Below are positions 43,332 through 60,476 of a stretch of 64,000 nt of DNA, in pieces. Origin of the DNA: Acidobacteriaceae bacterium. Lineage in GTDB: Bacteria > Acidobacteriota > Terriglobia > Terriglobales > Acidobacteriaceae. A program made the position numbers and the translations under genes. How positions within the stretch are numbered: position 1 is the first letter of the stretch; the number at the start of each line of letters is the position of its first letter. Location: assembly GCA_965276615.1 (NCBI GenBank), contig OZ255618.1:2598333-2662332 (forward strand), written 5' to 3'. A model generated the notes under the pieces. The model had not been told where the DNA came from, did not search any database, and worked only from the letters and a program-made list of their open reading frames with translations.

Positions 43332-43335
43332 TATT

Positions 43336-44567: not shown

Positions 44568-46862
44568 CTACATGAGCTTGTCCAAGGTTATAGGCAAGCT
44601 GCGGATGCGCTTGCCGGTTGCATGATAGACAGCGTTCGCAACCGCGGCCGCCGCTCCGGTGATGCCGATCTCACCGATGCCGTGGGCGCCGAGAGGGGTG
44701 TGCGGGTCGGGTATGTCGAGGAAGTAAGCCTCGATTTTGGGAACGTCAAGATTTACCGGGACGTGGTACTCAGCGAGGCTTGGATTCATGATGCGGCCGG
44801 AACGCTCGTCGAATAAAGCCCCCTCGGTGAGCGCCATGCCTATTCCCATAATGATGCCTCCCATAAATTGTGAGCGGGCGGTCTTAGGGTTGAGGATGCG
44901 ACCTGTATCGAACGCGCCGACCCATCGCGAAACGCGGACCTCACCGGTGATTTCGTTCACGCGCACTTCGCAGAACTGCGCTCCATAGGAGCCCATCGAG
45001 TACTTCATCAGTTCGACTGGCTTGCCCGACATGGCTTCCGCTTCCAGCGAACTCTTCTGTGCGCGGGCAAGGATAGCAGCGTAGGTCTCACCTTTGCTGC
45101 GGTCCTTGCGGCGGAAAAGGCCGCCCGCCCGAGCCTCCACTTCCGCGAAATCGGCTCCTTTGAGAGGTGAGCGGTCGTCATGCCGGACAAGATCGAGGAT
45201 CTCTTTGTGGAGCTTCTCACAGGCCTCATGCACGGCGAGCGCAATGCTGACCGTCTGGTTGGAGCCGCCCGCAACCGGTGCCTGCGGGAGATCGCTGTCG
45301 CCGTATTCAAATCGAACCTTCTCCATGGGCAAACCGAGACGCTCGGCAGCATGCTGCGTTTGCACGGTGGCCGTTCCCATTCCCATTTCCTGGCCGGCGC
45401 ACTGAACCGTTGCCGTGCCATCGGCGCTAATGCGCACACGCGCAGATGCGGGGAACCGGTACGCGGGATAGAAGGCAGTCGCCACACCCTGGCCAAGCAG
45501 CCAATCGCCCTCACGCTGGGAGCGCACCTTTGCGGGCCGATCCTGCCAATGAAATTTTTCGGAGCCGAGGCGGTATGCCTCTTTGAAATGCCGCGCGGAG
45601 AAAGGGATGCCCTTAGCGGGGTCGGTTTCGGCGTCATTGAGCATGCGGAGCTCGACTGGATCGACACCGAGTTCATAAGAAAGCTCATCCATGGCGGACT
45701 CCAGGGCGAAGGTGCCGATGGACTCGCCGGGTGCGCGCATGAAGGTGTTGGCGGTGGTGTTGAGATGAACAACGCGTTGATTGACGAGGAAAGTTTTTGA
45801 CGCATAGAGATGACGCGCCGGAAAAGTGAACTGCTCCGCGAACTCGTTGCTGAAGGTTGTGGCGGTGACACCGATATGGATCAGCGCGGTGAGCTTGCCT
45901 TCCTTGTTGGCGGCGAGGGCGACGCGCTGATCCGATGGTGTGCGGCCGCCGACGGTGCGAAATACACCTTCGCGGCTGAGGACGAGGCGCACAGGCCGAC
46001 CGACGACTTTGGCCGCGAGAACGCAGAGCTGCACGTGCGGCCAAACCGATCCTTTGCCGCCAAAACCTCCGCCGACGAACTGCGAGATCACGTGGACGTT
46101 CTCTTTTTTGAGCGAGAAGATCTTGGCCAGCGTGTCCGCAACGCCGCGAATGAATTGGCTTGCTTCGTAGACGGTGAGCTTGTCATCGCCGTCCCACGCA
46201 GCAGTAGTAGCGTGGAGTTCGATGGCGTTGTGGTTGTAGCGTGGCGTGGTGTAGCGGTGATCGACTTTGAACGGGGCAGCGCTTAGCGCGGCTTCGGGAT
46301 CGCCATGTTTGACCTCGGTGTCCTCGCCCATAATGTTCTTCGGCGTCTCCGCGCCGGGTTTCGCGGCGTCGAAGGAGAGCTCCGCAGCCTCGACGTTAAA
46401 TTTGGCGGTGATCAGGCCGGCAGCACTCTCCGCACGTTCCAGTGTGTCGGCGACAACCAGCGCGATGGGTTGGCCGTCATAGAGGATTTCGTCGGTATTT
46501 AGTACGTTGACGTTGCTGGCACCCGCGTCCGAGCCGCCGGCGGGATCGAAGAGCGGTGGGGGCTTCATACGGGGCGCATTGTCGTTGGTGATCACGGCAA
46601 GGACGCCCATCGCCTTCTCGGCGTCGCTGATGTTGATGGATTTGATTGAGCCTTTCGCTACGGTGCCATACGCCAGCGCCGCGTGGACGAGACCTGGGAG
46701 AGGATACTCAGCGGCGAAGGGCGCTGCTCCAGTGACCTTGTCGCGTCCGTCGAGACGATCGATGGGTTTACCGAGCACGCGGTGCGCATCGCTGAGCTCG
46801 TCGCGATCGCGGTCGGGAATGACATGGACGACTGCTTGCATGACCTTGGACGTGATGCTCAT
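44568..46862 (-). CDS. Xanthine dehydrogenase/aldehyde oxidase family molybdopterin-binding large subunit
   Basis: 764 aa with typical a/b-hammerhead and Moco-binding domains (GGGFGGKG). It has a 4-nt overlap with the FAD subunit. Confidence 0.9.
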   Translation of the reverse strand: MSITSKVMQAVVHVIPDRDRDELSDAHRVLGKPIDRLDGRDKVTGAAPFAAEYPLPGLVHAALAYGTVAKGSIKSINISDAEKAMGVLAVITNDNAPRMKPPPLFDPAGGSDAGASNVNVLNTDEILYDGQPIALVVADTLERAESAAGLITAKFNVEAAELSFDAAKPGAETPKNIMGEDTEVKHGDPEAALSAAPFKVDHRYTTPRYNHNAIELHATTAAWDGDDKLTVYEASQFIRGVADTLAKIFSLKKENVHVISQFVGGGFGGKGSVWPHVQLCVLAAKVVGRPVRLVLSREGVFRTVGGRTPSDQRVALAANKEGKLTALIHIGVTATTFSNEFAEQFTFPARHLYASKTFLVNQRVVHLNTTANTFMRAPGESIGTFALESAMDELSYELGVDPVELRMLNDAETDPAKGIPFSARHFKEAYRLGSEKFHWQDRPAKVRSQREGDWLLGQGVATAFYPAYRFPASARVRISADGTATVQCAGQEMGMGTATVQTQHAAERLGLPMEKVRFEYGDSDLPQAPVAGGSNQTVSIALAVHEACEKLHKEILDLVRHDDRSPLKGADFAEVEARAGGLFRRKDRSKGETYAAILARAQKSSLEAEAMSGKPVELMKYSMGSYGAQFCEVRVNEITGEVRVSRWVGAFDTGRILNPKTARSQFMGGIIMGIGMALTEGALFDERSGRIMNPSLAEYHVPVNLDVPKIEAYFLDIPDPHTPLGAHGIGEIGITGAAAAVANAVYHATGKRIRSLPITLDKLM

Positions 46863-47854
46863 CGGGCTGTCTCCTCATTTGCAAGTTCGGTGAAGACGCT
46901 CACAATCGTCCGCCGGGCAAGTTCCACCTTAAATGCATTGTGCTGAAACGTTCGGGCGCCTTCGAGTTCAAGCGAAGCCGCCTCACTGAGGGTCTGATCA
47001 TCGCACCGTTTGCCGACCAGGAACTCCTCTGCGAGAGACGCACGCCAGGGCTTGTGGGCTACACCTCCAAGTGCGAGGCGGACCTGCCGGATTAGGCCAT
47101 CTTCGATCTCGACCGCGGCTGCGACCGAGACGAGGGCGAATGCGTAGCTGGCACGATCGCGAACTTTGCAATAGAGGGAGCGCTTCGCAAACGGAAGCGC
47201 GGGCAGATCAACATGCGTGATCAGTTCGTCGCTCTCGAGATTGGTGTCTCGCTCCGGCGTGTCGCCGGGCAGGCGATGAAAATCGATCAACGGAATTGTG
47301 CGTTCGCCGCGAGGGCTCCGGATACGAACGATGGCGTCCAGAGCGGCCATTGCAACGCACATGTCGGATGGATGAGTCGCGATACACTGCGCCGACGCTC
47401 CCAGAATGGCGTGGATACGATTGAAACCATCGATCGCGTCACATCCGGAACCGGGCGCGCGCTTATTGCAGCGAGCAGCGCTGTCGTAAAAGTAATAGCA
47501 GCGCGTCCGCTGGAGCAGATTGCCGCCTGTCGTCGCCATATTGCGAAGCTGAGCGGATGCGCCCATCAGAATGGCCTGCGAGAGCACCGGGTACCGCTCT
47601 CGCACCGTGGGGTGTCCAGCGAGATGGCTGTTGCGAACGAGAGCGCCGATGCGAAGGCCGCCATCAGCAAGCTCGTCGACGTTATTGAGCGGAAGACGGG
47701 TGATGTCGATCAGCGTGGCGGGATTCTCAATGCCCTCCCGCATCAGATCGATCAGATTGGTGCCGCCGCCGAGGATCTTGGGAAGCGAACTCTGTGCGAG
47801 CAGGTCCAGTGCTCCCTGCTCGCTTTCGGCGCGCCCATAGGCAAAATTGTTCAT
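46859..47854 (-). CDS. Xanthine dehydrogenase family FAD-binding (CO dehydrogenase flavoprotein-like) subunit
   Basis: FAD_binding_5-like GGGTNLIDLM motif. The start was reset to ATG 47854, which overlaps the upstream stop (ATGA). Confidence 0.85.
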   Translation of the reverse strand: MNNFAYGRAESEQGALDLLAQSSLPKILGGGTNLIDLMREGIENPATLIDITRLPLNNVDELADGGLRIGALVRNSHLAGHPTVRERYPVLSQAILMGASAQLRNMATTGGNLLQRTRCYYFYDSAARCNKRAPGSGCDAIDGFNRIHAILGASAQCIATHPSDMCVAMAALDAIVRIRSPRGERTIPLIDFHRLPGDTPERDTNLESDELITHVDLPALPFAKRSLYCKVRDRASYAFALVSVAAAVEIEDGLIRQVRLALGGVAHKPWRASLAEEFLVGKRCDDQTLSEAASLELEGARTFQHNAFKVELARRTIVSVFTELANEETAR

Positions 47855-48417
47855 CGGCTGACCTCCACTGCATTCGATTCGGTTGCCGGCTTCCGCTCGC
47901 TGTAGACCTGCTGAATCGCGTCGGTAATGCCGACATACGCGCCGCATCGGCATAGGTTGCCGCTCATGCGCTCCTTCACTTCGGCTTCGGAGAACTCCAT
48001 CTGCGAGCCTGTCATACTCGCCGTAACAGCGCTGGGCAGGTCGCTCTCAAACTCCGCCATCATGCCGATTGCGGAGCATATCTGCCCTGGGGTGCAGTAG
48101 CCGCACTGAAAACCGTCGTGCTGGATGAATGCTGTTTGAAGAGGATGAAGACCCTCAGCGGTCGCAAGTCCCTCGATCGTGACGATTTTGCGTCCCTCGT
48201 ATTGAATCGCGAGCGCGAAGCACGAGTTGATGCGCTCACCGTCGACCAGGACCGTGCAGGCTCCGCATGCGCCTTGATTGCAGCCCTTCTTGGTTCCGAA
48301 AAGGTGAAGGTGCTCGCGCAGAGCGTCCAGCAGGGAGACACGGGCTTCAATTTCAAGCGTGTGCTCCATGCCGTTCACGTGCAGATTTACTGTATGTGCC
48401 TCGTTGGCCGGTTGCAT
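47851..48417 (-). CDS. (2Fe-2S)-binding small subunit of the molybdoenzyme
   Basis: CNQGACGACTV and CGYCTPG cluster motifs. There is no twin-arginine signal. Confidence 0.9.
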   Translation of the reverse strand: MQPANEAHTVNLHVNGMEHTLEIEARVSLLDALREHLHLFGTKKGCNQGACGACTVLVDGERINSCFALAIQYEGRKIVTIEGLATAEGLHPLQTAFIQHDGFQCGYCTPGQICSAIGMMAEFESDLPSAVTASMTGSQMEFSEAEVKERMSGNLCRCGAYVGITDAIQQVYSERKPATESNAVEVSR

Positions 48418-48846: not shown

Positions 48847-49872
48847 ATGCGAGTAGGAATCATAGGTACCGGCGCCATCGCTCAGAAGCATGCGCAAGCC
48901 TATCAAAATATAGGATTTGAACTCACTGTTTGCACAAACACCACTGCATCAAAGGGAAAAAAGTTCGCCGACGCAACGGGAGCGGAATTTGTAGGAAGCT
49001 ACGAAGAGGTTTGCCGTCATCCAAAAGTGGACTACGTAGACGTCTGCACAATGCCCGACTTCCGGTTGCCTGTCGTGGAACTATGCGCAAGAACAAAGAA
49101 GCATGTTCTGGTGCAAAAGCCGATCGCGACAAACCTCGAAACAGCGCGGGCAATGATTGAAATCGCGCGCAAAGCCGGCATTCAGCTCGGTGTAGTGAGT
49201 CAGCATCGCTTCGACGATTCCACTCAATTCCTCAGTCAAGCAATTTCCGCTGGGCGTCTAGGTAAAATCCTCCAGGCGGATGCTTACGTAAAGTGGTATC
49301 GGTCCGCGGAATATTACAGCCGGCCTGTCAAAGGAAGCTGGGCCGGTGAAGGCGGCGGCGCACTGATAAACCAAGGAATACATCAGATAGACGTGCTGCT
49401 ATCGTTAGCTGGCCCTATAAAGCAGGTATCTGGATATTGGCAATTAGGCGCATTGCACAACATAGAATCGGAAGACGTGGTTAGCGCGTTATTGTCCTAT
49501 TCCTCCGGTGCGACGGGAGTGGTTCAGGCCTCAACAGCAATCTGGCCGGGATATCCGGAGCGGCTGGAAATCCACGGCACAAAGGGGACTGCGATCATCA
49601 CGGGTGACCGGCTGACCACATGGGACGTCAAAGACGAGAGCAGTAGCTCCGCGCCAGTCGCGGACACAGTGGCTTCAGGGGCTTCCGATCCGATGGCGAT
49701 TTCAACGCAGTCCATGGAACGGCAATTTGTCGATTTCGGTGAAGCCTGCAAAAGCGGCCGGGCTCCTCTAGTCTCCGGCGCGGATGGTTACCGGGCGCTG
49801 CAGGTGGTGACCGCCATCTATGCGTCCTGCAGGCAGGGCCACAATATCGATATCGATCAGGAGCCGCTTTAA
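48847..49872 (+). CDS. Gfo/Idh/MocA family oxidoreductase
   Basis: N-terminal Rossmann motif MRVGIIGTGAIAQKHAQA and an EKP-like VQKP motif. 341 aa. Confidence 0.9.
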   Translation: MRVGIIGTGAIAQKHAQAYQNIGFELTVCTNTTASKGKKFADATGAEFVGSYEEVCRHPKVDYVDVCTMPDFRLPVVELCARTKKHVLVQKPIATNLETARAMIEIARKAGIQLGVVSQHRFDDSTQFLSQAISAGRLGKILQADAYVKWYRSAEYYSRPVKGSWAGEGGGALINQGIHQIDVLLSLAGPIKQVSGYWQLGALHNIESEDVVSALLSYSSGATGVVQASTAIWPGYPERLEIHGTKGTAIITGDRLTTWDVKDESSSSAPVADTVASGASDPMAISTQSMERQFVDFGEACKSGRAPLVSGADGYRALQVVTAIYASCRQGHNIDIDQEPL

Positions 49873-49947
49873 ATTAGCAGGCTGAATTTCGAGTTCCCAA
49901 TTGATCTATTTACATCCGGCCCCCATGCGGACGCGATCAACAATGAT

Positions 49948-51159
49948 ATGAATGTCAAGATGGAATCACGCACGTTGGATCAGAAGAAACTATATACCCA
50001 ATACCGCAACCTGCTGCTCGACAACGTGGTTCCTTTTTGGCTGAAACACGGAATCGATTGGAAGCACGGCGGTGTATTGTCCTGCATGCGGGATGACGGA
50101 TCGATTGCCAGCGGCGACAAATTTATATGGTCGCAAGCCCGCTCCGTGTGGACCTTTTCCGCGCTTTATAATCGCGTCGAGAAGCGGCCGGAATTTCTCG
50201 CCGCAGCGGAAAACTCAATCCGCTTTCTCGTGGACCACGGACGAGACAAGGACGGCAAGTGGATTTATCATGCGGACCAGCAAGGCCGCGTGATCGAAGG
50301 CGCAACCAGCATCTATACCGACTGCTTCGTTGTCTACGGCTTCAGCGAATACTATCGCGCGGTTCGCGATGAACGTGTTCTTTCGATCGCGCAGGAAACG
50401 TTTGAGCGTGTGCGGCGACGCATCGAAGAACCGGATTTTCACGAAACAGCGCCATACCCATTACCGTCAGGCTGGAAGAACCACGGCATTCCGATGCTCA
50501 TGGCGGAAGTGACCAGCGAACTGGCACAGACCACAGGAGACGCCAGCCTTGAGCCGCTGATTGACAATTATGTTGCGCGGATCATGGACCATTTCGTCCG
50601 TCCGGAGCGGAAGGTTCTTCTCGAGTTCCTTACAGCAGACTACAAAGAAGTGCCGCCGCCCGCAGGAACATTCGTGATGCCCGGCCATGCCATCGAATCG
50701 ATGTGGTTTGTGATGCATGTAGCGCGCCGGCGCGGAGACAATGATCTAATCCGCCGTGCCGCTGAAGTGATCCGTTGGCATCTTGAAATGGGCTGGGACG
50801 AGGAATACGGCGGCATCTTCTTGTCGCAAGATATCGAAGGGCACGAGCCATATCTACCGCATTCAGAGAAGAAGCTATGGTGGCCTCACGTCGAAGCGAT
50901 CTATGCGACGCTGCTCGCTTATCGGCTCACCGGAGAATCGTGGTGCCTCGAATGGCACGAACGCGTGTCGGATTGGGCATGGTCGCATTTTCCCGCGCCG
51001 GAATTTGGAGAGTGGTATCAGCGTCTCACCCGGGAAGGGAAGCCGACCACAGAGGTCATCGCTCTCCCGGTAAAAGATCCGTTCCATCTGCCGCGCGCGG
51101 CTATTTTAATCATGCAGTTGATGGAAAGCTCACAGGATGCGCAGAGGTCGAAAGAATAG
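49948..51159 (+). CDS. N-acylglucosamine 2-epimerase (AGE) superfamily epimerase/isomerase
   Basis: Alpha/alpha-barrel AGE-like sequence (VPFWLKHGIDWKHGG, FIWSQARSVWTFS, LWWPHVEAIYA). 403 aa. Confidence 0.8.
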   Translation: MNVKMESRTLDQKKLYTQYRNLLLDNVVPFWLKHGIDWKHGGVLSCMRDDGSIASGDKFIWSQARSVWTFSALYNRVEKRPEFLAAAENSIRFLVDHGRDKDGKWIYHADQQGRVIEGATSIYTDCFVVYGFSEYYRAVRDERVLSIAQETFERVRRRIEEPDFHETAPYPLPSGWKNHGIPMLMAEVTSELAQTTGDASLEPLIDNYVARIMDHFVRPERKVLLEFLTADYKEVPPPAGTFVMPGHAIESMWFVMHVARRRGDNDLIRRAAEVIRWHLEMGWDEEYGGIFLSQDIEGHEPYLPHSEKKLWWPHVEAIYATLLAYRLTGESWCLEWHERVSDWAWSHFPAPEFGEWYQRLTREGKPTTEVIALPVKDPFHLPRAAILIMQLMESSQDAQRSKE

Positions 51160-52380
51160 ATGACAAGTTTGCGGTCGGTGAAGGCGAATATTCTACGCAA
51201 TTACAAGTTGACGGGCTGGAAAGACAGCATCGCTGGCCGCTGGAGTTATCGAGACCTGGCCGCCGACCCAGCCTGGTCTAAGGGTTGGATCAGTTTTGAT
51301 ACTGTTCGCTGGAACAGCAGCGACCGGAAACTTTATTGCGGCTTGAATTCTATCGACGGAGATTTGCTGTACGCGTTTGATCCTCGCAGCGGAGAATTTG
51401 AGTGTCTGAATACGAAGGAGTGGGCAGACGAGTTCGACGTCAAAATCCATCGGACTCTCCTTTTGAATCCCGACGATGGCTGTCTGTATTTCGCAACCTC
51501 TTTGCTGCATGATGTTGACCAGCAGCGGGAAGCAAAGGGCGGCAAGCTTGTTCGCTTCGATCCGGGGACGCGGAAGTACGATCTCCTGAGCGTTCCCGTC
51601 CCTCATCTCTATATCCAGTCCATCGCCGCGGACTGGCAGCGCAGAATCCTTTATGGCTTTACGTATCCTGCCGAAGCAATTTTCAAAATCGACCTTCGGA
51701 GCAAGTCATCGGAAATCCTCGCTTACATTGGAAACGCGATCATGTTCGCTCAGCCGCACAACGCCGTCGTGGATCGCGATGGCTGGCTGTGGGGAACCTA
51801 CGCCGAGACGCGCGCGTGGGATGAGACGACAGGCAAAACTCCGATACGGCTATTCAAATATCACCCGGAGGGTGACAGATTTGTTTGGTTCGATCACGGG
51901 CTGTCATTGCGTGCCGATCAAAAGCAACTACTCACCGACCCGCTTGTGCCACCGGGCGTGACCGGCACTCTCGGCGAAACCAGGCATAAAGAGGACTTCG
52001 GCTTTTGCGATTCGATGACCTATGACGGCGACCGTTACATTTACGCTGGCACCGTAGCGGGCGTACTGAGCCGGATCGATACGCAGACCGGCAAAGTGGA
52101 GAAGGTGGCGAATGTGATGGCCGCAAGCAGGTTGCCCGCTCTGACTATCCGCGATGGAATTCTTTTCGGCGGCGGCGGCATGCACGGCCACACACAACTT
52201 ATCCGTTGGGACCTCCAGAGCGATCGGATCGAGAGCTTCTCAAACCTGGTCGATCCGGAGATTGACGAACGTCCCGCGCGCATCCACGATATCGATGTAG
52301 ATGATGACCATCGAATTTATCTCGCGGAAAACGACAACCATGTTCGGTCCAGCTTTCTATGGACTGTCCACATTGACTGA
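51160..52380 (+). CDS. Uncharacterised repeat protein, probably a beta-propeller
   Basis: The ATG directly abuts the AGE stop. Seven to eight blade-like recurrences are visible (DGDLLYAFDP, DGCLYFATS, RILYGFTYP, DGWLWGTYA, DRFVWFDHG, DRYIYAGTV, DGILFGGGG, HRIYLAEND). Confidence 0.55.
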   Translation: MTSLRSVKANILRNYKLTGWKDSIAGRWSYRDLAADPAWSKGWISFDTVRWNSSDRKLYCGLNSIDGDLLYAFDPRSGEFECLNTKEWADEFDVKIHRTLLLNPDDGCLYFATSLLHDVDQQREAKGGKLVRFDPGTRKYDLLSVPVPHLYIQSIAADWQRRILYGFTYPAEAIFKIDLRSKSSEILAYIGNAIMFAQPHNAVVDRDGWLWGTYAETRAWDETTGKTPIRLFKYHPEGDRFVWFDHGLSLRADQKQLLTDPLVPPGVTGTLGETRHKEDFGFCDSMTYDGDRYIYAGTVAGVLSRIDTQTGKVEKVANVMAASRLPALTIRDGILFGGGGMHGHTQLIRWDLQSDRIESFSNLVDPEIDERPARIHDIDVDDDHRIYLAENDNHVRSSFLWTVHID

Positions 52381-52446
52381 TTTGATGGCAACCGCGCATT
52401 CAGGCAAACTTTGGAGTATGAAGAAAGTTTCTGTTTGCGGGAGAGC

Positions 52447-53595
52447 ATGATGGCATTCAAGTCGATCACAGGCCGCGATCCATCGAACGGGGAGCCAATC
52501 AAAATCTCCATTGATAACGGGCAGATTCAATCGATCACCCCGGGCCCTGCGGACGAGAGTGCCTGGTTGTCGCCGGGCTTTATCGATCTACAGGTGAATG
52601 GCTATCTTGGCAGCGATCTAAATTCAGGCATAGTCGATCCAGACGTTGTGATCTCGCTGACCCGGAAGATGATCTCAACCGGTGTCACCACCTATCTCCC
52701 CACAATCATCACAGCTTCCGAAGAGCGCATCCTCGCGGCCCTTCGCGCAATCGCGGAAGCGCGCCGCATCAGTCCACTCGTCGCTCACGCGGTCCCGTAC
52801 GTTCATGTGGAGGGCCCCTATATTTCGCTGGAAGATGGGCCCCGCGGAGCACACCCGCGGGAACATGTTCGTCCCGCCAGTCTTGCAGAATTCGACCGCT
52901 GGCAGGCAGCGTCCAATAATCTCGTCGGCATGGTAACCATCTCTCCACACCGCGACGACGCGCTGGAGTACATCTCCGTGCTCGCCAAAAAAGGAGTGGT
53001 AGTGGCGATCGGCCACAGCGACGCCACGCCGGCTCAGATCCGTGCCGCGACAGACGCGGGCGCAACGCTGTCCACGCATCTCGGCAATGGACTCGGCAGT
53101 CCGCTGCCCCGGCATCCGAACCTGCTGTGGGCGCAGCTTGCGGAGGATCGTCTCACCGCGTGCTTTATTGCCGACGGGCATCATCTTCCCGCTGACACGC
53201 TCCAGGTAATGTTGCGCGCCAAAGGAATCGGCCACTGTGTCCTGGTCTCCGATGTAGTCGCGTTGGGAGGAATGCCTGCAGGCATCTATGATGCCGAGGT
53301 CGGCGGCGCTGTAGAGGTAACCTCCGACGGATGCGTGAGGAGCGCCTCTGGTGGACGGTTCCTTGCGGGAGCCTACCGTCCTTTGATGGATGGCGTCGCG
53401 CGCGTCGCGGGAATGGATGGATTCTCGTTCAAAGACGCGATCCGGATGGCGACCCGGAATCCAGGCCAATTTGTCGGCGGTCGCGGAAGGCTGCGCGTCG
53501 GAGCCGACGCCGACCTCGTTCGCTTCCACTGGGATTCCGCTTCCACAAAATTGGAAATTCAGAGTGTGCTGGTGAAGGGCGAGGAATGTCTGTAG
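52447..53595 (+). CDS. nagA: N-acetylglucosamine-6-phosphate deacetylase (NagA) family amidohydrolase
   Basis: PGFIDLQVNGYLG resembles E. coli NagA FIDVQLNGCGG. Also STHLGNG and FIADGHHLP. 382 aa, the same length as E. coli NagA. The start was reset to ATG 52447. Confidence 0.8.
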   Translation: MMAFKSITGRDPSNGEPIKISIDNGQIQSITPGPADESAWLSPGFIDLQVNGYLGSDLNSGIVDPDVVISLTRKMISTGVTTYLPTIITASEERILAALRAIAEARRISPLVAHAVPYVHVEGPYISLEDGPRGAHPREHVRPASLAEFDRWQAASNNLVGMVTISPHRDDALEYISVLAKKGVVVAIGHSDATPAQIRAATDAGATLSTHLGNGLGSPLPRHPNLLWAQLAEDRLTACFIADGHHLPADTLQVMLRAKGIGHCVLVSDVVALGGMPAGIYDAEVGGAVEVTSDGCVRSASGGRFLAGAYRPLMDGVARVAGMDGFSFKDAIRMATRNPGQFVGGRGRLRVGADADLVRFHWDSASTKLEIQSVLVKGEECL

Positions 53596-54638
53596 AGGCC
53601 GAACAGATCAAGCCATGCCGGTCAGGCAGTCTCAACACGATAGTCGATCGGGACACGATACAGAATGTGATGGTTCGGCTGGGCCTGATGAAACCGGACG
53701 AGCCAATCAGGGTCGTAGAGCTGACCGGTGGAGTGTCTTCCACCATCCTCAGAATCGAAGGGCCCGGCGAAACATATTGTCTCAAGCAGGCTCTTCCCGC
53801 GCTCAAGGTCGCTCAACTGTGGAAAGCGCCGGTCGATCGAGTGTATGCGGAAATCGCCTGGTTGCAACTCGCACAGCGTATTGTGCCTGGCTGTGTTCCC
53901 CAGGTGTTGGGCATCGACAGGCTGACAAATAGTTTTGTGATGTCATTTCTGTCTCCCGACAACTTCCCAAATTGGAAGTCTGAGTTGTTGGCCGGACGAA
54001 TCGACTCATCCTTTGCGGCGGCAGTCGGGACTACCCTCGCTCGCATTCATAGCGCAACCGCCCACCAGGAAGAGGTCAGGCGCAACTTCGCGAATGACGA
54101 CAACTTCCTGACGCTGCGCCTCGATCCCTATCTGTTGGAGACAGCCAGGCGGCATCCCGATCTGGCAACACGTTTGCGCAGCCTGGTCGCTCGCACGCAG
54201 ACGCAAAAGCTTGCGCTTGTGCATGGCGACATCAGTCCCAAGAACATTCTCATCGGACCTTCCGGTCCGGTATTTCTCGATGCCGAGTGTGCCTGGTATG
54301 GCGATCCTGCATTCGACGTGGCGTTCTGTTTGAATCATCTTCTGCTCAAAAGCGCGGCGGATCGAAGCAATTCAGCATCACTGCTGCAGGCATTCGATGC
54401 GCTCGCCGGTGCGTATCTCTCGGGTGTCAACTGGGAGCCGGAACAAGACATCGAGTTCAGAATCGCAAGTTTAGTGCCCGCATTGGCGCTGGCCCGTATC
54501 AGCGGCAAGTCTCCTGTCGAATATCTCGACCCGGCTGCGCGCCAGCTCGTAATGAACGTTGCAGCGCCACTGGTCGCGCAACCGCCGATGCGGTTGGAAG
54601 ACCTGAAATCTGCGTGGAAGAAAGGATTCGACTTTTGA
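53586..54638 (+). CDS. APH-fold sugar kinase, methylthioribose-kinase (MtnK)-like
   Basis: LVHGDISPKNILIG...FLDAECAWYGDPAFDVAF parallels MtnK HGDLHTGSI...IDPEFAFYGPxGFD. It overlaps the nagA-like gene by 10 nt and the enolase-like gene by 4 nt. Confidence 0.7.
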   Translation: MSVEAEQIKPCRSGSLNTIVDRDTIQNVMVRLGLMKPDEPIRVVELTGGVSSTILRIEGPGETYCLKQALPALKVAQLWKAPVDRVYAEIAWLQLAQRIVPGCVPQVLGIDRLTNSFVMSFLSPDNFPNWKSELLAGRIDSSFAAAVGTTLARIHSATAHQEEVRRNFANDDNFLTLRLDPYLLETARRHPDLATRLRSLVARTQTQKLALVHGDISPKNILIGPSGPVFLDAECAWYGDPAFDVAFCLNHLLLKSAADRSNSASLLQAFDALAGAYLSGVNWEPEQDIEFRIASLVPALALARISGKSPVEYLDPAARQLVMNVAAPLVAQPPMRLEDLKSAWKKGFDF

Positions 54639-55921
54639 GCAACATCACAACCTTGCAGGCACGGCGCATTTGGGATTCACGCGGTCGGCCCACATTGGAG
54701 GTTGAAGTGACATTGGCCTGCGGCGCGGGTGGACGTGGCATAGCGCCGGCGGGTGCTTCACGCGGTCTGCACGAGGCGTTTGAGCTGCGGGATGGCACGT
54801 CCGTGCTGGCCGGCCTCGATGTACAAAAAGCATTGGCGGGAATTGTGCAAGAGATTCGCCCCGTGCTGATTGGGCACGACGCTCGCGAGCAATCGGTCAT
54901 CGATCAGCTTCTGATTGATCTCGATGGCACGCCCAACAAGTCCCGGCTTGGCGGAAATGCCCTGGTAGCGACTTCCATGGCTGTCCTGAATGCCGCCGCA
55001 GCTGCCGCCGGACTGCCACTCTGGCGCTACCTTGCTGCCGGAAATCCTGCAACTTTGCCATTGCCTCAAATCCAGATATTCGGGGGCGGCGCGCACGCCG
55101 GTCGCCGTATCGATATTCAGGACTTGATGGTCATCGCCATCGGTGCCCGCTCGTTTCAGGAGTGTCTGGTCATGACCGCTGAAGTTTACCGGTCCGGCGG
55201 GGAGCTGATGCGAAATCGAGGCCTGCTGGCCGGTGTCGCGGATGAAGGCGGCTGGTGGCCTGCGTTTGACAATAACGAGCAAGCGCTGGATACCTTGGTG
55301 CAGGCGATAGAGGCCGCCGGGTATGTGCCGGGAACCGATGTATCGATTGCACTCGATATCGCCGCGTCGGAGTTCGGTTCGAAGGGTCGATATCGTCTGG
55401 CGCTGGATGGGGTTGAACTGGACACGGACGGAATGTGCGAGCGCCTGTTGCGCTGGATCGAGCGATATCCCATCGTATCGATCGAAGACCCGTTGGCAGA
55501 GGATGACGAACCCGGGTGGATCGACTTTACACGGGCAGCGGGTTCGCAAGTACAAATAGTCGGAGACGATTATCTGGTAACCAATGCAGCACGAATCCAA
55601 GCCGCTGCCGCCCAGGGCGCCTGCAATTCCGTGCTGATCAAGCCAAACCAGGTTGGAACTATCACGGAGACACGCGCTGCGATCGAAAGTGCTCAGGCTG
55701 CCGGATTCTCCACAATCGTTTCAGCTCGCTCCGGCGATAGTGAAGACACAACAATTGTGCATCTGGCGACCGGCCTGAACATGGGACAGTTGAAAGTAGG
55801 CTCCTTCGCACGTTCGGAACGCATGGCCAAATGGAATGAAGGCGTGCGCATCGAGACAGGCCCGGATGAGATTCCACGTTTCGCGGGCGCGGGCGTACTC
55901 GCCGGACGTAGTTCAACCTAA
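54635..55921 (+). CDS. Enolase (phosphopyruvate hydratase) subgroup paralogue
   Basis: Collinear with E. coli Eno from IWDSRGRPTLEVEV to KWNEGVRIE. TTG start with AAGGA 9 nt upstream gives 13 residues before the DSRG motif, as in Eno. Confidence 0.8.
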   Translation: MSNITTLQARRIWDSRGRPTLEVEVTLACGAGGRGIAPAGASRGLHEAFELRDGTSVLAGLDVQKALAGIVQEIRPVLIGHDAREQSVIDQLLIDLDGTPNKSRLGGNALVATSMAVLNAAAAAAGLPLWRYLAAGNPATLPLPQIQIFGGGAHAGRRIDIQDLMVIAIGARSFQECLVMTAEVYRSGGELMRNRGLLAGVADEGGWWPAFDNNEQALDTLVQAIEAAGYVPGTDVSIALDIAASEFGSKGRYRLALDGVELDTDGMCERLLRWIERYPIVSIEDPLAEDDEPGWIDFTRAAGSQVQIVGDDYLVTNAARIQAAAAQGACNSVLIKPNQVGTITETRAAIESAQAAGFSTIVSARSGDSEDTTIVHLATGLNMGQLKVGSFARSERMAKWNEGVRIETGPDEIPRFAGAGVLAGRSST

Positions 55922-56042
55922 ATGTATTCGAAGAAACGACAATGCTGTGATTCGCTGATCAATTGCTGTGGAATGCTGAAGATGGCTGTAGTCTCCTTCG
56001 CTACAGCGGATTTACGTCACGAAATAAATAGGAGTCATTCCG

Positions 56043-56133
56043 AGTGCAGCGAGGAATCCAGAGAATATTCGCCTGGCGCGTGCTGCCATTATCTTTTGGA
56101 CTCTTCGCTGCACTCAGAATGATTCCGGTCAAT
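56043..56133. repeat. REP-like inverted-repeat element (copy E1)
   Basis: The arms TCATTCCGAGTGCAGCGAGGA (56044-56064) and TCTTCGCTGCACTCAGAATGA (56111-56131) are complementary at 19 of 21 positions. It lies in the enolase-rhaT intergenic region. Confidence 0.75.
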
Positions 56134-56213
56134 CATAATTGCAGTGTTCATAAATCGCTCTACTAGACATCATTCGCTGGAGACTCCACGCATCCAGTCC
56201 GAGATAGGAACCC

Positions 56214-57266
56214 ATGCACTTTACGGCGTCTGTTCTGGTTTTCGGAATTGCCTGCGCCATCATCTCTGGCATCATGAATGGGATTTTCACTTTGCCCATG
56301 AAATATCTCGGACAATGGCCATGGGAAAATGTGTGGGCGCTGGTTATGCTGGTGCCCTGCGTCATCCTGCCGTTTGCTGTGGTCTTGATCGCAGTTCCAG
56401 GATTCATCCATGTGCTTGGAACTGCGCCGACCTACGCGATCGTGTCGGCCTGCCTCTGCGGATTCGCATGGGGCTTCGGAGCCATCATGTTCGGCCAGGG
56501 CGTCTCGGCCATCGGAATCTCCATGGGCAACACGCTGGCGCTCGCCATCAGCGCATCCTTCGGATCGGTGCTTCCGATTCTGGTGTTGGCTCCCGCACGG
56601 TTGCATCTGCCTCAAGGCAAGGCAATCGTTCTGGGCACGCTCGTCGGTATTCTTGGCATTGCATGTTTTGGCTATGCGGGTTTTCGCAGGGAACGCAGCC
56701 AGAGAGGGAACGAGGAGAAAACGCGCGGCGACATGGTGGGCCACGCTCGGCCTTTCGCCATTGGCCTTCTGTTGTGTACCGGATCGGGTCTGCTCTCCGC
56801 CGTCTTCAATATCGGATACAGCCTGGCGCAGCCGGTAATGCAGACCGCCGTTCGTATGGGGCACAGCACCTTCGCGGGAACGAATGTGATCTGGCTCCTG
56901 ATGCTCACCTGTGGATCGGTGCCCAGCCTGGTTTTTTGCGGATATCTCTTCAAGAAAAATGGCACATGGAAGCAGTATGCGGCACCCGGCTCGATGCGTT
57001 TATACATCCTGGTCATCGGCATGGGCTTGATGTGGGGCGGACACACCTACCTCTACGGATTAGCTTCGCCAAAACTGGGTAAACTGGGTCCCGCAATCGG
57101 ATGGCCGCTTACCCTCATGGCGGGATTGCTGACAGTGAACACGTGCGGATTTCTCGCCGGTGAATGGAAGCTCACCCGCCTGCGAGATCGTCAGTGGATG
57201 GTGTTGGGCCTCTTGGTCACGCTTGCGGCCATAGCCGTGCTTGGATGGTCGAGCACATTAGGGTAG
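56214..57266 (+). CDS. RhaT-family sugar:proton symporter
   Basis: 350 aa with about 10 TM segments. WPWENVW vs E. coli RhaT WSWETMW, and C-terminal LAGEWK vs LKEWN. Confidence 0.7.
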   Translation: MHFTASVLVFGIACAIISGIMNGIFTLPMKYLGQWPWENVWALVMLVPCVILPFAVVLIAVPGFIHVLGTAPTYAIVSACLCGFAWGFGAIMFGQGVSAIGISMGNTLALAISASFGSVLPILVLAPARLHLPQGKAIVLGTLVGILGIACFGYAGFRRERSQRGNEEKTRGDMVGHARPFAIGLLLCTGSGLLSAVFNIGYSLAQPVMQTAVRMGHSTFAGTNVIWLLMLTCGSVPSLVFCGYLFKKNGTWKQYAAPGSMRLYILVIGMGLMWGGHTYLYGLASPKLGKLGPAIGWPLTLMAGLLTVNTCGFLAGEWKLTRLRDRQWMVLGLLVTLAAIAVLGWSSTLG

Positions 57267-57273
57267 GCCGCGA

Positions 57274-58113
57274 TCAGCCGAATTCCGGGCCGGCGGCAGC
57301 CAGCAATTGTGCAGGATTGCCCGGTAACGTTGAAAGGCCCAGTGCCATGCGCGTGAAGCGGCGCTGCGGGCGAAAGCCATGCTCCGTCAGTACGGGCACA
57401 AGCACATTCTCGGGCCCAAGTACATCGACGAAGCCCGAGCCGGAAGCAGCACGAATCCCCTCCGCAGCCAATGCGGGCGCTTCCGCCGGTTCGGCGACAA
57501 TCGGGCCTAAATGCCACCCGTTCGATCCTTTTCGAAGAATCGTAAATCCATGTGTGGATTGAAAAGCAACGCTGCCGGGACGCGACAGAAAATCTTCCAA
57601 CAGAAAGCGCCGGTCTGCGCCGAACGCGGACTGATCGAGCGTGAGGTCTGCGGAATTGCTCGCGGCTGCAATCCCTCCGCCTTGACCTTCCCAGCGCTCC
57701 ATCGTCGAGAGCGGCACAAATCCGAGCGCCGAATAGATGTCTGTCGCAGCCGGTGCCGCATCCAGCAGCGCAGCCCGTCCGGAGTCGCGCAAGACCGAGG
57801 TGCAAGCGGCAACAAGCCGCGTAGCCAGCCCGTGTCGGCGCCATTTGGAGGTCACCAGCACCATCGAGATCCAGCCGAAGGCACGTCCGTAAGGTAACGC
57901 AGCGGTAGTTGCCACCAGCCGATCGTCAACAACAAACCCGAGCACCGTGCCATGCGTGAAAAATACCGCCCAGTCTGCCGCAACCTGGTTCCAGCCAGCT
58001 TCTTTCGAAATGAGCAGAGCGCGCGGGATCCAGGTTGCGTCCAACGGTATCGGATGGAGCGTCTCATTGAGCGCATCAGGCAACACGGCGGCGTACCTCA
58101 AATCCGGTGACAA
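57274..58113 (-). CDS. GNAT-family N-acetyltransferase (YitH-like two-domain type)
   Basis: The acetyl-CoA motif region VLVTSKWRRHGLATRLV matches the Q/RxxGxG/A type. The start codon is uncertain (TTG, no SD). Confidence 0.7.
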   Translation of the reverse strand: MSPDLRYAAVLPDALNETLHPIPLDATWIPRALLISKEAGWNQVAADWAVFFTHGTVLGFVVDDRLVATTAALPYGRAFGWISMVLVTSKWRRHGLATRLVAACTSVLRDSGRAALLDAAPAATDIYSALGFVPLSTMERWEGQGGGIAAASNSADLTLDQSAFGADRRFLLEDFLSRPGSVAFQSTHGFTILRKGSNGWHLGPIVAEPAEAPALAAEGIRAASGSGFVDVLGPENVLVPVLTEHGFRPQRRFTRMALGLSTLPGNPAQLLAAAGPEFG

Positions 58114-58446
58114 ACATCGACACGACGCAGCAGGCGATAATTAGAATATCGATGGAATTTGCGGGCTTCATCTCATCCACTTTCATCGATTATTTTGAAT
58201 CGTGTCAATAGAATAAGGAGCAGAAGCGAACAGGACGACAGAAAATTTTCATCTGTTACACTCCTCCTTGCGAACTGCGCATTTGCTCAGATTTTGCCAA
58301 AAGATCTCCGAATCTTTTTTTGCGCAGTGGTATCGGAAGAACTGCCTGCAATAATAATGACGCGACCCTGATTTTTTTGAGCGAAGCAAAAATTCTGCAA
58401 CGGATGAACGCTGCCTGTGCGGCGACCAACCTTAAGGCGAACAAAC

Positions 58447-59469
58447 ATGACGATTGATAATGAAGCCCAATTGGAAGAGAGGCTGGCGCGGCCAACGCCC
58501 GCCGATATCGCAGCCATGCGCGACTTGGACGGCGATGTAGTTGTTCTTGGGGTTGGCGGCAAAATGGGTCCCAGCCTTGTCCGCCTCATGCAGCGGGCCG
58601 TAACCGAGGCCGGCGTGAAAAAAAGAATCATCGCTGTCGCGCGTTTCTCCGACAAGGCGCTACCCGCTGCCCTGGAAGCGGACGGAATTGAAACAATCGC
58701 CTGCGATTTGCTGGAGGATGGAGCGCTGGCCAGTCTGCCCGATGCCGCCAATGTCATCTTTATGGCCGCACGAAAGTTTGGCACCACGGGATCGGAATAT
58801 CTAAGCTGGGCCATCAACACGCAACTGCCGGCATTGGTGGCGGACCGTTACCGGGAGTCGCGCATCGTCTGCTTTTCAAGCGGCAATATTTATCCGTTTC
58901 GGCCGATTCAGTTCGGCGGCGCAACGGAAACAACGCCCGCCGCCCCGCAAGGGGAATATGCCCAGTCCGTCCTGGGCCGCGAGCGCGTCTTTGAACATGG
59001 CTCTCACCGGTGGGGAACTCCGCTGGCGCTTCTGCGGCTCAATTATGCAATCGATCTTCGCTATGGCGTACTGGCCGACATCGCAAGCGCAGTATATCGG
59101 CGGCAGCCCGTAGACGTCCGCATGCCGCTGGTGAACATCATCTGGCAGGGAGATGCGAACTCCGTCTGTATCCGCTCTTTTCCTTTCTGCCAGTCGCCGC
59201 CCTTCGTGCTGAACCTTACCGGACCCGAGACCTTCAGCACCCGCTGGATCGCCGAAGAGTTTGGACGGCATTTTGGCTGCGAACCAACTTTCAGCGGCGA
59301 AGAATCCTCCTCCGCTCTCTTGAGTAACGCGGCGAAATCCCATCGTCTCTTCGGGTATCCCACAGTCACTCCCGATGAAATGATCGAGTGGGTCGCTCAT
59401 TGGATCGAGAGCGAAAATCCAATGCTCGGCAAGCCGACTCACTTTCAGACGCGGGACGGAAAATTCTAA
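58447..59469 (+). CDS. NAD-dependent epimerase/dehydratase (extended SDR) family protein
   Basis: VVVLGVGGKMGPSLV Rossmann motif, 340 aa. The start was reset to ATG 58447. Confidence 0.75.
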   Translation: MTIDNEAQLEERLARPTPADIAAMRDLDGDVVVLGVGGKMGPSLVRLMQRAVTEAGVKKRIIAVARFSDKALPAALEADGIETIACDLLEDGALASLPDAANVIFMAARKFGTTGSEYLSWAINTQLPALVADRYRESRIVCFSSGNIYPFRPIQFGGATETTPAAPQGEYAQSVLGRERVFEHGSHRWGTPLALLRLNYAIDLRYGVLADIASAVYRRQPVDVRMPLVNIIWQGDANSVCIRSFPFCQSPPFVLNLTGPETFSTRWIAEEFGRHFGCEPTFSGEESSSALLSNAAKSHRLFGYPTVTPDEMIEWVAHWIESENPMLGKPTHFQTRDGKF

Positions 59470-60476
59470 TGACCTTAAGCGAAAAATTAAAAAGCGGCCT
59501 GGTGATTCCAGCCCATCCCCTCGCGTTAAGCAGCAGCAGAAAACTGGATGAGCGCCGTCAGCGCGCCCTCACCCGTTACTATCGCGCTGCCGGAGCAGGC
59601 GGTGTCGCGGTTGGCGTGCACACCACGCAGTTCGCGATCCGCCAGGTGGGACTCCTGCGCCCGGTACTGCAACTGGCGGCGGAAGAGCTGCGAGACTCCC
59701 CGATGTTAAAGATCGCCGGCGTTTGCGGTCCGCAGCCAGGTGCGATTGCGGAGGCGGAACTGGCCGTCTCATTGGGTTACGATGCAGTGCTTCTCAGCAT
59801 GGGAGGATTGCAATCTCTCTCCTTTAAAGATCATCTGGACCGCGCCCGGGCCGTTGCGTCGATTGTCCCGGTCATCGGTTTCTACCTGCAACCCTCAGTG
59901 GGCGGCCGCATTTTCCCATACAGCTTTTGGCGGGAATTTGCGGAGATAGAGAATCTCGCCGCCATCAAAATGGCGCCGTTCAATCGCTATCAGACACTCG
60001 ACGTCGTGCGCGCGGTTCTCGATGCTGGCCGGGAAAAGGAAATCGCCCTCTACACCGGCAATGACGACAACATTCTGGTTGACCTGTTGACAGAGTTCGA
60101 TTTTGGCAGCAAGCGTGCCCATATTGTCGGTGGTCTGCTCGGACATTGGGCGGTGTGGACACGGACCGCGGTGGCGCATCTCAACACGGCAAAAGAATCG
60201 CGGGGCACGGCTGCGAAGAATCTACTGACGCTTGCCCAGCAGATCACCGATGCGAACGCCGCCTTCTTCGATCCCGCGCACAATTTCGCCGGCTGCATCG
60301 CCGGCATTCATGAAGTTCTGCGTCGGCAAGGTCTGCTCGAGGGAATTTGGTGCCTCGATCCGGAGGAATGCCTGTCGCCCGGCCAGAGCGAAGAGATCGA
60401 CCGCATCTATCGATGCTATCCACGTTTGAACGACGACAATTTTGTTCGCGAACACCTGGACGAGTGGCTTCGTTAG
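59469..60476 (+). CDS. Dihydrodipicolinate-synthase-like (class I aldolase fold) family protein
   Basis: TIM-barrel DHDPS-like sequence with a candidate Schiff-base lysine in LAAIKMAPF. The ATG overlaps the upstream stop (TAATG). Confidence 0.6.
   Translation: MTLSEKLKSGLVIPAHPLALSSSRKLDERRQRALTRYYRAAGAGGVAVGVHTTQFAIRQVGLLRPVLQLAAEELRDSPMLKIAGVCGPQPGAIAEAELAVSLGYDAVLLSMGGLQSLSFKDHLDRARAVASIVPVIGFYLQPSVGGRIFPYSFWREFAEIENLAAIKMAPFNRYQTLDVVRAVLDAGREKEIALYTGNDDNILVDLLTEFDFGSKRAHIVGGLLGHWAVWTRTAVAHLNTAKESRGTAAKNLLTLAQQITDANAAFFDPAHNFAGCIAGIHEVLRRQGLLEGIWCLDPEECLSPGQSEEIDRIYRCYPRLNDDNFVREHLDEWLR

Follow-up and report, generated by a model that had tools for sequence, protein, structure and literature searches.

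A 64,000-nucleotide stretch of the genome of an Acidobacteriaceae bacterium (contig OZ255618.1, positions 2,598,333 to 2,662,332; the whole stretch is termed the window below) encodes a small-molecule kinase of the aminoglycoside phosphotransferase (APH) fold (53586-54638, + strand; PF01636) whose gene runs into that of its partner, an enolase paralogue with altered ligands for the C3 hydroxyl (C3-OH) of the substrate (54635-55921, + strand; TIGR01060). We propose, with a probability of about one in two, that this pair comprises a new type of glycerate 2-kinase, built on the APH fold, and a dedicated enolase that yields phosphoenolpyruvate (PEP). The kinase would act on a small 2,3-dihydroxy acid, in all likelihood D-glycerate, by phosphorylating its 2-hydroxyl, and the enolase paralogue would then eliminate the C3 substituent to give PEP, such that the pair might serve as a shared finishing step for diverse routes ending in glycerate or hydroxypyruvate. 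The substrate, the phosphorylated position, and the product are what we infer; the pair itself is an observed, widely conserved unit with a distinctive active-site signature.

Conservation of the kinase-enolase pair

Homologues of the kinase were aligned, the alignment was scanned against one genome per species, and the recurrence of the window genes in the vicinity was scored by tblastn. The kinase family is large, with more than 8000 homologues at 90% clustering and about 860 representatives of 50%-identity clusters at E<=1e-30. In a first tally, an enolase gene was adjacent to the kinase gene in 78 of 82 loci, and in the non-redundant set it lay no more than 6 kb away in 87 of 91. The exact 4-nt overlap between the stop and start codons is seen in 47 of 81 loci, and an overlap of any length in 60 of the 81; such conserved overlap hints that the two proteins may form a complex. 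These loci span Pseudomonadota, Acidobacteriota, Chloroflexota, SAR324, Actinomycetota, Bacteroidota, Methylomirabilota, and haloarchaeal plasmids. Carriers of the module include soil, plant-associated, marine, and haloarchaeal organisms. The pair is borne on plasmids or chromids in Rhizobium, Azospirillum, Rhodococcus, Methylobacterium, Paracoccus, Cupriavidus, Haladaptatus, and others (32 plasmid records); complete genomes of Escherichia coli contained no match to the Enterobacter version.

The converse scan started from the enolase. Of 120 matches to metagenome DNA encoding the peptide ARSGETED, which covers part of the altered active site, 115 lay inside enolase homologues, and the kinase was adjacent on the same strand in 39 of the 41 loci that extend for 900 bp or more in both directions. 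Because this reverse scan recovers the kinase, the active-site signature and the kinase partnership constitute one co-evolving unit. Side by side with the pair, some Acidobacteriota encode a soluble protein of about 340 aa directly after the enolase (locus L089, 12306-13328, with a 4-nt overlap; locus L090, 10605-11636). It has no match in Pfam or NCBIfam and could belong to the module as its third component.

Literature searches on enolase paralogues, glycerate kinase, APH/MtnK kinases, phosphosulfolactate, self-resistance to SF2312, and the enolase subgroup returned no description of the pair. NCBI models, as applied by PGAP, name its members only "aminoglycoside phosphotransferase family protein" and "eno," and because of these labels metabolic reconstructions miss the two-step module.

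Active site of the kinase-linked enolases

Like canonical enolases, the window protein has both characteristic domains (Enolase_N, PF03952, 3.2e-44; Enolase_C, PF00113, 5.8e-84), and it scores 466 bits against the enolase family model TIGR01060, for which the cut-off is 300. It is 46.7-48.2% identical to the canonical enolases of Mycobacterium tuberculosis (7ckp) and Enterococcus hirae (1iyx) and, in the same alignment, 56-71% identical to kinase-linked enolases of its own subfamily (subfamily A) from other phyla; kinase-linked enolases overall show 42-53% identity to the same two canonical proteins. In yeast numbering, it keeps the metal ligands D246, E295, and D320, together with K345, E211, K396, R374/S375, and the S39 loop, and the corresponding aligned motifs are ALDIAASEF, SIEDP, VGDDY, IKPNQ, ADEGG, QLKVG, ARSG, and GASRG. 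Indeed, no kinase-linked enolase has lost the metal ligands, either catalytic residue (Lys and Glu), or the phosphate site. With the catalytic machinery kept, a 2-phospho-carboxylate substrate and a beta-elimination mechanism are expected for these enzymes; under the glycerate proposal, they would form PEP from 2-phosphoglycerate (2-PGA).

What sets them apart from the canonical enzyme, besides their accessory and partly plasmid-borne nature, is the pocket around C3. The window enolase shows the changes SHRSG to SARSG, QEFM to QDLM, GDEGG to ADEGG, NGGxHA to GGGAHA, and KTG to KVG. The examined kinase-linked members of both subfamilies share this pattern, namely, E168 to D, H373 to A, G to A before DEGG, N to G or S in NGGxHA, and T to V or I after K396, with QD(F/L)M as the form that the QEFM motif takes in the aligned sequences. 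H373 is replaced by Ala (by Gly in one locus) in all 77 kinase-linked enolases tallied, and the E168-to-D change was found in 56 of 57 by motif search and in 13 of 13 aligned members of both subfamilies. Glu168 and His373 are the ligands of the C3-OH in canonical enolase, and the window protein has Asp and Ala in their places. In the E. coli enzyme, Glu167 and His369 hydrogen-bond a hydroxyl analogous to the C3-OH of 2-PGA (PMC6863902).

The second subfamily, at about 43% identity to the window type, shows the opposite gene order, with the enolase preceding the kinase, and the same E-to-D and H-to-A signature (loci L091, L093, L024, L040, L053, L064, L074, and L075). Still deeper enolase branches, with 38-50% identity to the window enolase, are present in metagenome loci (L101-L218). 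PDB searches with the kinase and the enolase recovered no solved structure belonging to either kinase-linked enolase subfamily.

An APH-fold kinase outside the known glycerate kinase classes

The kinase is recognized by the APH-family Pfam model at 3.5e-17. Its closest solved relative is the Arabidopsis 5-methylthioribose kinase MTK (2pyw, E=1e-10); the MtnK structure 2olc matches at only E=9e-5, and the kinase scores 74.7 bits against the MtnK equivalog model TIGR01767, far below the cut-off of 275. Hence, the "MtnK-like" label of an initial annotation, made from the window sequence without database searches, holds at the level of the shared fold family, PF01636, whereas the specific resemblance is remote. 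Like MtnK and DrdK, which act on 5-methylthioribose and 5-deoxyribose, respectively, the enzyme belongs to this family; unlike them, it has no partner of the MtnA-type isomerase or aldolase kind and is instead coupled to an enolase. Given this partner, the substrate would be a carboxylic acid phosphorylated at O2 rather than a sugar phosphorylated at the anomeric hydroxyl.

Three classes of glycerate kinase are known (PMC2063504). Searches against Pfam and NCBIfam matched the window kinase to APH-family models only, with no homology to class I (GlxK/GarK), class II (MOFRL/TtuD/GckA), or class III (GLYK). If it is a glycerate kinase, it would thus be predicted to be non-homologous to all of these and would represent a fourth class. 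Among the representatives of the 50%-identity clusters, we also noticed fusions of the kinase to UxuA (P0426), to a MobA-like nucleotidyltransferase (P0461), and to a large N-terminal domain (P0433), the last of which (about 667-690 aa) has no relative in PDB or Pfam. These fusion proteins could be either clues to function or artefacts of gene calling.

Genomic neighborhoods and the proposed conversion of glycerate to PEP

The neighborhoods of the pair are mostly heterogeneous, with a 2-oxoacid reductase as the one recurrent partner. Picking open reading frames by GC3 missed genes, recovering 11 D-2-hydroxyacid dehydrogenases (2HADHs) versus 32 by tblastn; hence, the tblastn counts are used here. 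By this measure, a 2HADH lies near the pair in 32 of the 91 loci and an ApbA/PanE-type reductase in 9 of the 91. In an independent metagenome set, 2-Hacid_dh was again a top recurrent neighbor, tied with ABC_tran at six members each. FAH or aldolase genes occur near the pair in about 11 loci.

Individual loci provide more specific contexts. In Enterobacter and Yokenella, the pair stands under a LacI regulator with an MFS transporter, a glycerate-dehydrogenase-like 2HADH, a hydratase, and a GarL/HpaI-like aldolase, an arrangement resembling the gar operon with the pair in the place where GarK would be. A Rhizobium plasmid combines LysR, ppc, and 2HADH genes with the kinase, and Rhodococcus opacus PD630 has the order FAH, 2HADH, enolase, kinase, FAH. 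In Paracoccus, the kinase and enolase share an operon with an FAH gene, two or three SDR genes, and a sugar ABC transporter. Among more distant Acidobacteriota, locus L090 encodes UxuA along with an MR/MLE dehydratase, a lactonase, an SDR, and an FAH hydrolase that is a near-equivalog of the 2,4-didehydro-3-deoxy-L-rhamnonate hydrolase (LRA6-like), followed by the kinase and enolase, and in L089 GH38 genes, an MGH1-like (mannosylglycerate-hydrolase-type) hydrolase, and an SDR lie beside the pair. On a Haladaptatus plasmid (L097), it adjoins an HpcH-type aldolase, several MR/MLE dehydratases, lactate utilization (LUD) genes, and an iron alcohol dehydrogenase. XDH-type aldehyde oxidoreductase genes adjoin the pair in the window and in loci L081 and L037.

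In the window, these are three divergently transcribed genes for the subunits of a PaoABC-type molybdenum aldehyde oxidoreductase (44568-48417, - strand; Pfam), with scores of 613 bits for PaoC and 269 bits for the glyceraldehyde dehydrogenase alpha subunit, both below the respective cut-offs. They are flanked (42561-44232) by an SDR gene of the aldose/glucose 1-dehydrogenase type (+ strand), which passes the glucose 1-dehydrogenase subfamily cut-off at 221 versus 215 bits, and an aldolase-type gene of the DHDPS family (- strand), which reaches 149 bits versus the 206 needed for dapA. Together, the aldehyde oxidoreductase, aldolase, and aldose dehydrogenase could supply glycerate in this organism, in a scheme that would amount to the lower branch of a non-phosphorylative Entner-Doudoroff-type pathway.

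The reductase, aldolase, diketo-hydrolase, UxuA, ppc, MGH1-like, and molybdenum oxidoreductase neighbors converge on glycerate as a common metabolite, which can arise by reduction of hydroxypyruvate or tartronate semialdehyde, oxidation of glyceraldehyde, hydrolysis of diketo acids, or hydrolysis of glycosylglycerates. The ppc gene next to the pair on the Rhizobium plasmid likewise points to PEP as the product. Further, the high identity across phyla (about 50% for the kinase and 56-71% for the enolase) in otherwise unrelated contexts favors one small, common substrate.

A glycerate 2-kinase followed by enolase is the logic of the serine cycle (HprA, GckA, Eno, Ppc), of the non-phosphorylative Entner-Doudoroff branch, and of the garPLRK/glxK system of E. 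coli. The route proposed for the pair, from reduction of a 2-oxoacid or oxidation of an aldehyde through glycerate and 2-phosphoglycerate to PEP, follows the same logic, and its 2HADH, ppc, GarL-like aldolase, MFS transporter, and molybdenum aldehyde oxidoreductase neighbors are those of the known glycerate routes. It differs in that the kinase has an APH/MtnK-type, protein-kinase-like fold and in that the pair brings its own translationally coupled enolase with changed C3-OH ligands, where the known routes use the housekeeping enzyme. As judged from the sequences, then, the pathway logic would be familiar, with a kinase non-homologous to the known glycerate kinases and a specialized enolase. 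Were this function borne out for the kinase, it would close the gap left by a missing glycerate kinase in pathways of the acid-sugar, serine-cycle-like, and non-phosphorylative Entner-Doudoroff types.

Several considerations weigh against this proposal. The substrate is assigned from the neighbors, and many pairs are orphans with no informative neighbor. A route from glycerate to 2-phosphoglycerate has no obvious need of an enolase of its own, and the change of the 2-PGA C3-OH ligands in every kinase-linked enolase may hint at a different substrate or leaving group. The RhaT permease of the window, the LRA6-like hydrolase of L090, and the LUD genes of Haladaptatus point to 6-deoxyhexoses, the C3 product of which is lactate and not glycerate. 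The coupling of a NagA-like gene to the kinase and enolase in the window could reflect a functional link specific to this lineage. Finally, the paralogy of the enolase within its own genome is deduced, though strongly, from other carriers of the pair.

Alternative functions for the pair

The altered C3 pocket could be accommodated by a broader reading, which we entertain tentatively and at clearly lower odds than glycerate: the kinase-linked enolases might have a non-2-phosphoglycerate function within the true enolase subgroup, fed by an unrecognized class of acid kinase. Under such an "activate with ATP, then eliminate" principle, a 3-substituted or longer 2-hydroxy acid, such as L-glycerate, sulfolactate, or an aldonate by way of its 2-phospho form, would be converted to PEP or one of its homologues, and this would take place across hundreds of lineages of bacteria and some of archaea. 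We know of no widespread primary-metabolic function of this kind in the subgroup, which, to our knowledge, is treated as isofunctional. If the altered pocket does mean another substrate, the pair would add a new reaction to the subgroup and would caution against naming every TIGR01060-positive protein a glycolytic enolase. The initial annotation had likewise suggested an enolase-subgroup enzyme with a substrate other than 2-phosphoglycerate; the changed C3-OH ligands leave room for this part of the idea, but nothing ties the enzyme to the N-acetyl-aldonate then envisaged.

One specific form of this reading is an ATP-activated dehydration of longer acid sugars, in which a 2-phospho-aldonate would lose its 3-OH to give a 2-phosphoenol-3-deoxy-aldonate that on dephosphorylation would yield a 2-keto-3-deoxy acid, the pair thereby replacing a classical acid-sugar dehydratase. 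The E168D and H373A changes would widen the pocket around C3, and in the Paracoccus operon neither a dehydratase nor a lactonase accompanies the pair, the FAH and SDR genes, and the sugar ABC transporter; the FAH or aldolase genes near the pair in other loci would also fit. Yet L090 and Haladaptatus already have MR/MLE and UxuA dehydratases beside the pair, near-identical orthologues occurring alone or in unrelated contexts argue against any one specific aldonate, and the ppc and 2-oxoacid reductase neighbors better match a C3 product. Moreover, the neighbor censuses revealed no recurring phosphatase or dedicated pyruvate-kinase partner. We therefore regard this route as rather unlikely.

A second specific form, also improbable in our view, would have the pair turn another 3-substituted 2-hydroxy C3 acid into PEP, either L-glycerate from the diketo-hydrolase routes of L-sugars or 3-sulfolactate with loss of sulfite. 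It would make clear why a new kinase is needed as well as a remodeled enolase. The changed residues are the ligands of the leaving group. The LRA6-like FAH of L090 would yield an L-configured acid from L-sugars, and the frequent lack of any further dedicated gene is what a PEP product would lead one to expect. The commonest partner of the pair, however, is a D-specific 2-hydroxyacid dehydrogenase, and the same censuses revealed no recurring sulfite exporter, sulfite dehydrogenase, or sulfo-sugar gene. Sulfoquinovose or sulfolactate was also considered for the window, in which the pair follows a gene of the AGE (N-acylglucosamine 2-epimerase) family, a family that includes YihS. It was dropped as a leading reading, as the PDB relatives of this AGE protein include GlcNAc 2-epimerases and cellobiose 2-epimerases only and no sulfoquinovose isomerase, sulfite-handling genes do not recur near the pair, and the literature search on phosphosulfolactate gave nothing.

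It is also conceivable, though very unlikely, that the pair is a resistance cassette, with a variant enolase insensitive to natural phosphonate inhibitors of the SF2312 type, which mimic the reaction intermediate, and an APH-family kinase that inactivates the inhibitor. Antibiotic kinases typically have the APH fold, the pair frequently stands alone or on a plasmid and varies in its context, and the residues changed are those that bind the inhibitor hydroxyl in E. coli enolase (PMC6863902). Speaking against it are the recurrent linkage to 2-oxoacid reductases and to acid-sugar operons under LacI, IclR, or LysR regulators, the lack of a linked transporter or biosynthetic cluster, and the lack of a report in the literature searched.

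One amino-sugar pathway or several modules

In the window, the pair sits within a run of ten genes (48847-60476) that the initial annotation had combined into a single oxidative, aldonate-type route for an N-acetylated hexosamine. In that scheme, a Gfo/Idh/MocA oxidoreductase (48847-49872, + strand; Pfam) performs C1 oxidation, a beta-propeller protein acts as a lactonase, the kinase, a NagA-like deacetylase, and the enolase follow, with the last catalyzing beta-elimination, and a class I aldolase completes the route. The comparisons make this a most improbable account; the region is a patchwork of sugar-catabolism modules in a polysaccharide-use island, and the supposed amino-sugar cluster is better read as several such modules.

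The scheme was not without foundation, as the AGE (49948-51159, + strand; PF07221), propeller (51160-52380, + strand), NagA-like (52447-53595, + strand), kinase, and enolase genes are indeed tightly coupled in the window and in close relatives, and the enolase active site is altered. However, the block from AGE to the RhaT-family sugar:proton symporter (56214-57266, + strand) is kept only in three near relatives from the Acidobacteriaceae (L083, L084, and L094; 72-88% protein identity), which are also the only loci where RhaT follows the enolase. The AGE, propeller, NagA, RhaT, GNAT, SDR-like, and DHDPS-like genes of the window were adjacent to the kinase in none of the 82 loci of the first tally. 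The trio of kinase, enolase, and nagA, whose conservation had been suggested as a test, was found in none of the other 87 kinase loci, which include further Acidobacteriota (L018, L027, L036, L047, L059, L089, and L090); there, the orthologous pair occurs alone or in acid-sugar and hydroxypyruvate contexts with no amino-sugar genes. As co-conservation, the criterion named in the initial annotation itself, thus fails beyond near relatives, so does the one-pathway model.

The individual enzymes tell the same story. The Gfo protein has IolG as its best NCBIfam match at 127 versus 355 bits, nothing supports a role for it as a C1 dehydrogenase, and it is missing from the syntenic block of L083 and L084, where the only Gfo gene is 25% identical and on the other strand. 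The GNAT, SDR-like, and DHDPS-like genes are likewise missing from that block. The NagA-like protein retains the sugar-6-phosphate-binding Arg typical of GlcNAc-6-P deacetylases; it scores just under the cut-off of TIGR00221 (192.4 versus 225.65 bits), matches the PDB NagA structure 3egj at 6.6e-38, and aligns with 3egj and 2vhl in the QxN, E, H, H, H, and D motifs as well as in this Arg. The AGE homologue is a clear family member (PF07221, 4e-57, 194 bits versus a cut-off of 23.4) with the GlcNAc 2-epimerases 6f04 (E=2e-92) and 2gz6 (E=3e-87) as PDB relatives, although it scores 350 against the stricter NCBIfam equivalog, for which the cut-off is 600. By these features, AGE and the NagA-like protein look like an ordinary ManNAc/GlcNAc module that shares an operon with the pair in this lineage only.

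The AGE-dependent route from ManNAc through GlcNAc and GlcNAc-6-P to GlcN-6-P is that of Bacteroides-type sialate/ManNAc catabolism. The window resembles it in having an AGE close to characterized GlcNAc 2-epimerases and a NagA-like protein with a complete catalytic set; it differs in having no local ROK/NagK, NagB, or sialate lyase partner and in the propeller gene between AGE and NagA. The earlier view that this is not the textbook nag pathway is thus well founded, the NagA-like gene being the sole component present. As had also been noted for the cluster, neither it nor the longer open reading frames scanned in the window (essentially those of at least 200 aa) include a ROK kinase, NagB, a phosphotransferase system component, or a local regulator; the window does have two LacI genes, more than 20 kb from the cluster.

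The propeller protein (406 aa, cytoplasmic) is predicted by AlphaFold to adopt a beta-propeller fold (pLDDT 90.5, pTM 0.92). It has no significant match in Pfam or NCBIfam, with only DUF6923 appearing below the cut-off, and Foldseek retrieves generic propellers at TM scores of 0.45-0.58. The best 50 matches comprise designed, WD40, YncE, Lp49, Kelch, and BT4663/BT4673 sensor propellers, with strictosidine synthase from rank 43 (TM 0.45). A sugar lactonase of the SMP-30/SGL or 6-PGL type, as earlier proposed, was rejected, for no lactonase profile matches and none of these 50 structures is a lactonase. There are 487 homologues, and among the 120 matches listed all are at least 63% identical while spanning Acidobacteriota and Planctomycetota; the family is unusually conserved and has neither a Pfam entry nor a specific structural neighbor. 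Elsewhere, in other phyla (L085-L088), the propeller gene adjoins GH99, GH172, GH106, GH29, and GH42-like genes rather than AGE, NagA, or the kinase.

A probable accessory enolase

In Azospirillum brasilense Sp7, the pair is on p1, with an enolase 72.5% identical to that of the window, and coexists with an enolase bearing all the canonical motifs on p3. The latter is itself on a plasmid, in a fermentation-type cluster with pflB, a pta-like gene, and ackA (L220), and Azospirillum may have three enolase genes in all. The window enolase is hence very probably an accessory paralogue tied to the kinase, as initially supposed, with A. brasilense Sp7 providing the direct view by proxy. That it is instead the housekeeping enolase of the organism, adjacent to the kinase by chance, is the least probable of the readings, for although it passes the TIGR01060 cut-off, such genes are called eno by PGAP, and the genome beyond the window lay outside the search, the linkage to the kinase holds across phyla with conserved translational coupling, the signature active site is absent from canonical enolases, and the pair is found on plasmids and alongside a canonical enolase in A. 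brasilense Sp7.

Gene junctions and other features of the window

The ten open reading frames and their junctions were confirmed by the open reading frame map and by direct reading of the sequence. The Gfo gene is the first on this strand and is separated by 75 nt from AGE, the TAG stop of which directly abuts the propeller ATG at 51160. For the NagA-like gene, the longest open reading frame begins at a TTG at 52411; a GGGAG precedes the ATG at 52447, which is most likely the start. The kinase ATG lies 10 nt inside the 3' end of this gene, and in the 4-nt overlap with the kinase TGA the enolase start codon is TTG (TTGA), not ATG. The enolase and RhaT genes are separated by a 292-nt spacer that has a terminator-like hairpin and T-run at 56074-56088, for which reason RhaT may be transcribed on its own; scanning for promoters and terminators did no better overall than on shuffled sequence, and Rfam found no RNA element across 42-62 kb of the window.

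The family calls of the initial annotation hold for the most part at the Pfam level, the propeller with no significant match, the sub-threshold DHDPS-like protein, and the kinase with its remote likeness to MtnK being the exceptions. RhaT is assigned by PF06379 (2e-20), with the NCBIfam RhaT models below their cut-offs. Downstream of it lie genes for a GNAT acetyltransferase (57274-58113, - strand; Pfam), a divergent NAD-dependent epimerase/dehydratase (SDR-like) protein (58417-59469, + strand; PF01370, 5.7e-6), for which PDB yielded no sequence relative, and a divergent DHDPS/N-acetylneuraminate-lyase-like protein (59469-60476, + strand), the last two joined by a TAATG junction. The DHDPS-like protein scores 18.2 bits against PF00701, below the gathering cut-off of 22.1, and has only remote matches to N-acetylneuraminate lyases (8u8w, E=4e-7), its Lys- and Tyr-containing motifs being recognized by eye alone; it nonetheless has more than 8000 homologues, which among the 120 matches listed are 70-88% identical. 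These three genes form a separate conserved module, as they recur as a co-directional trio in locus L096 (8164-11014) with neither the kinase nor the enolase.

The first part of the window (1-42000), a carbohydrate-use island, has several open reading frames with no family, along with two DUF6259 proteins, a DUF5107-TPR protein, an FGGY kinase, and SSF and MFS transporters. It also encodes three TonB-type outer-membrane proteins (PF25183), the two LacI regulators, and glycoside hydrolases of the GH27 (with CBM35), GH36, and GH97 families.

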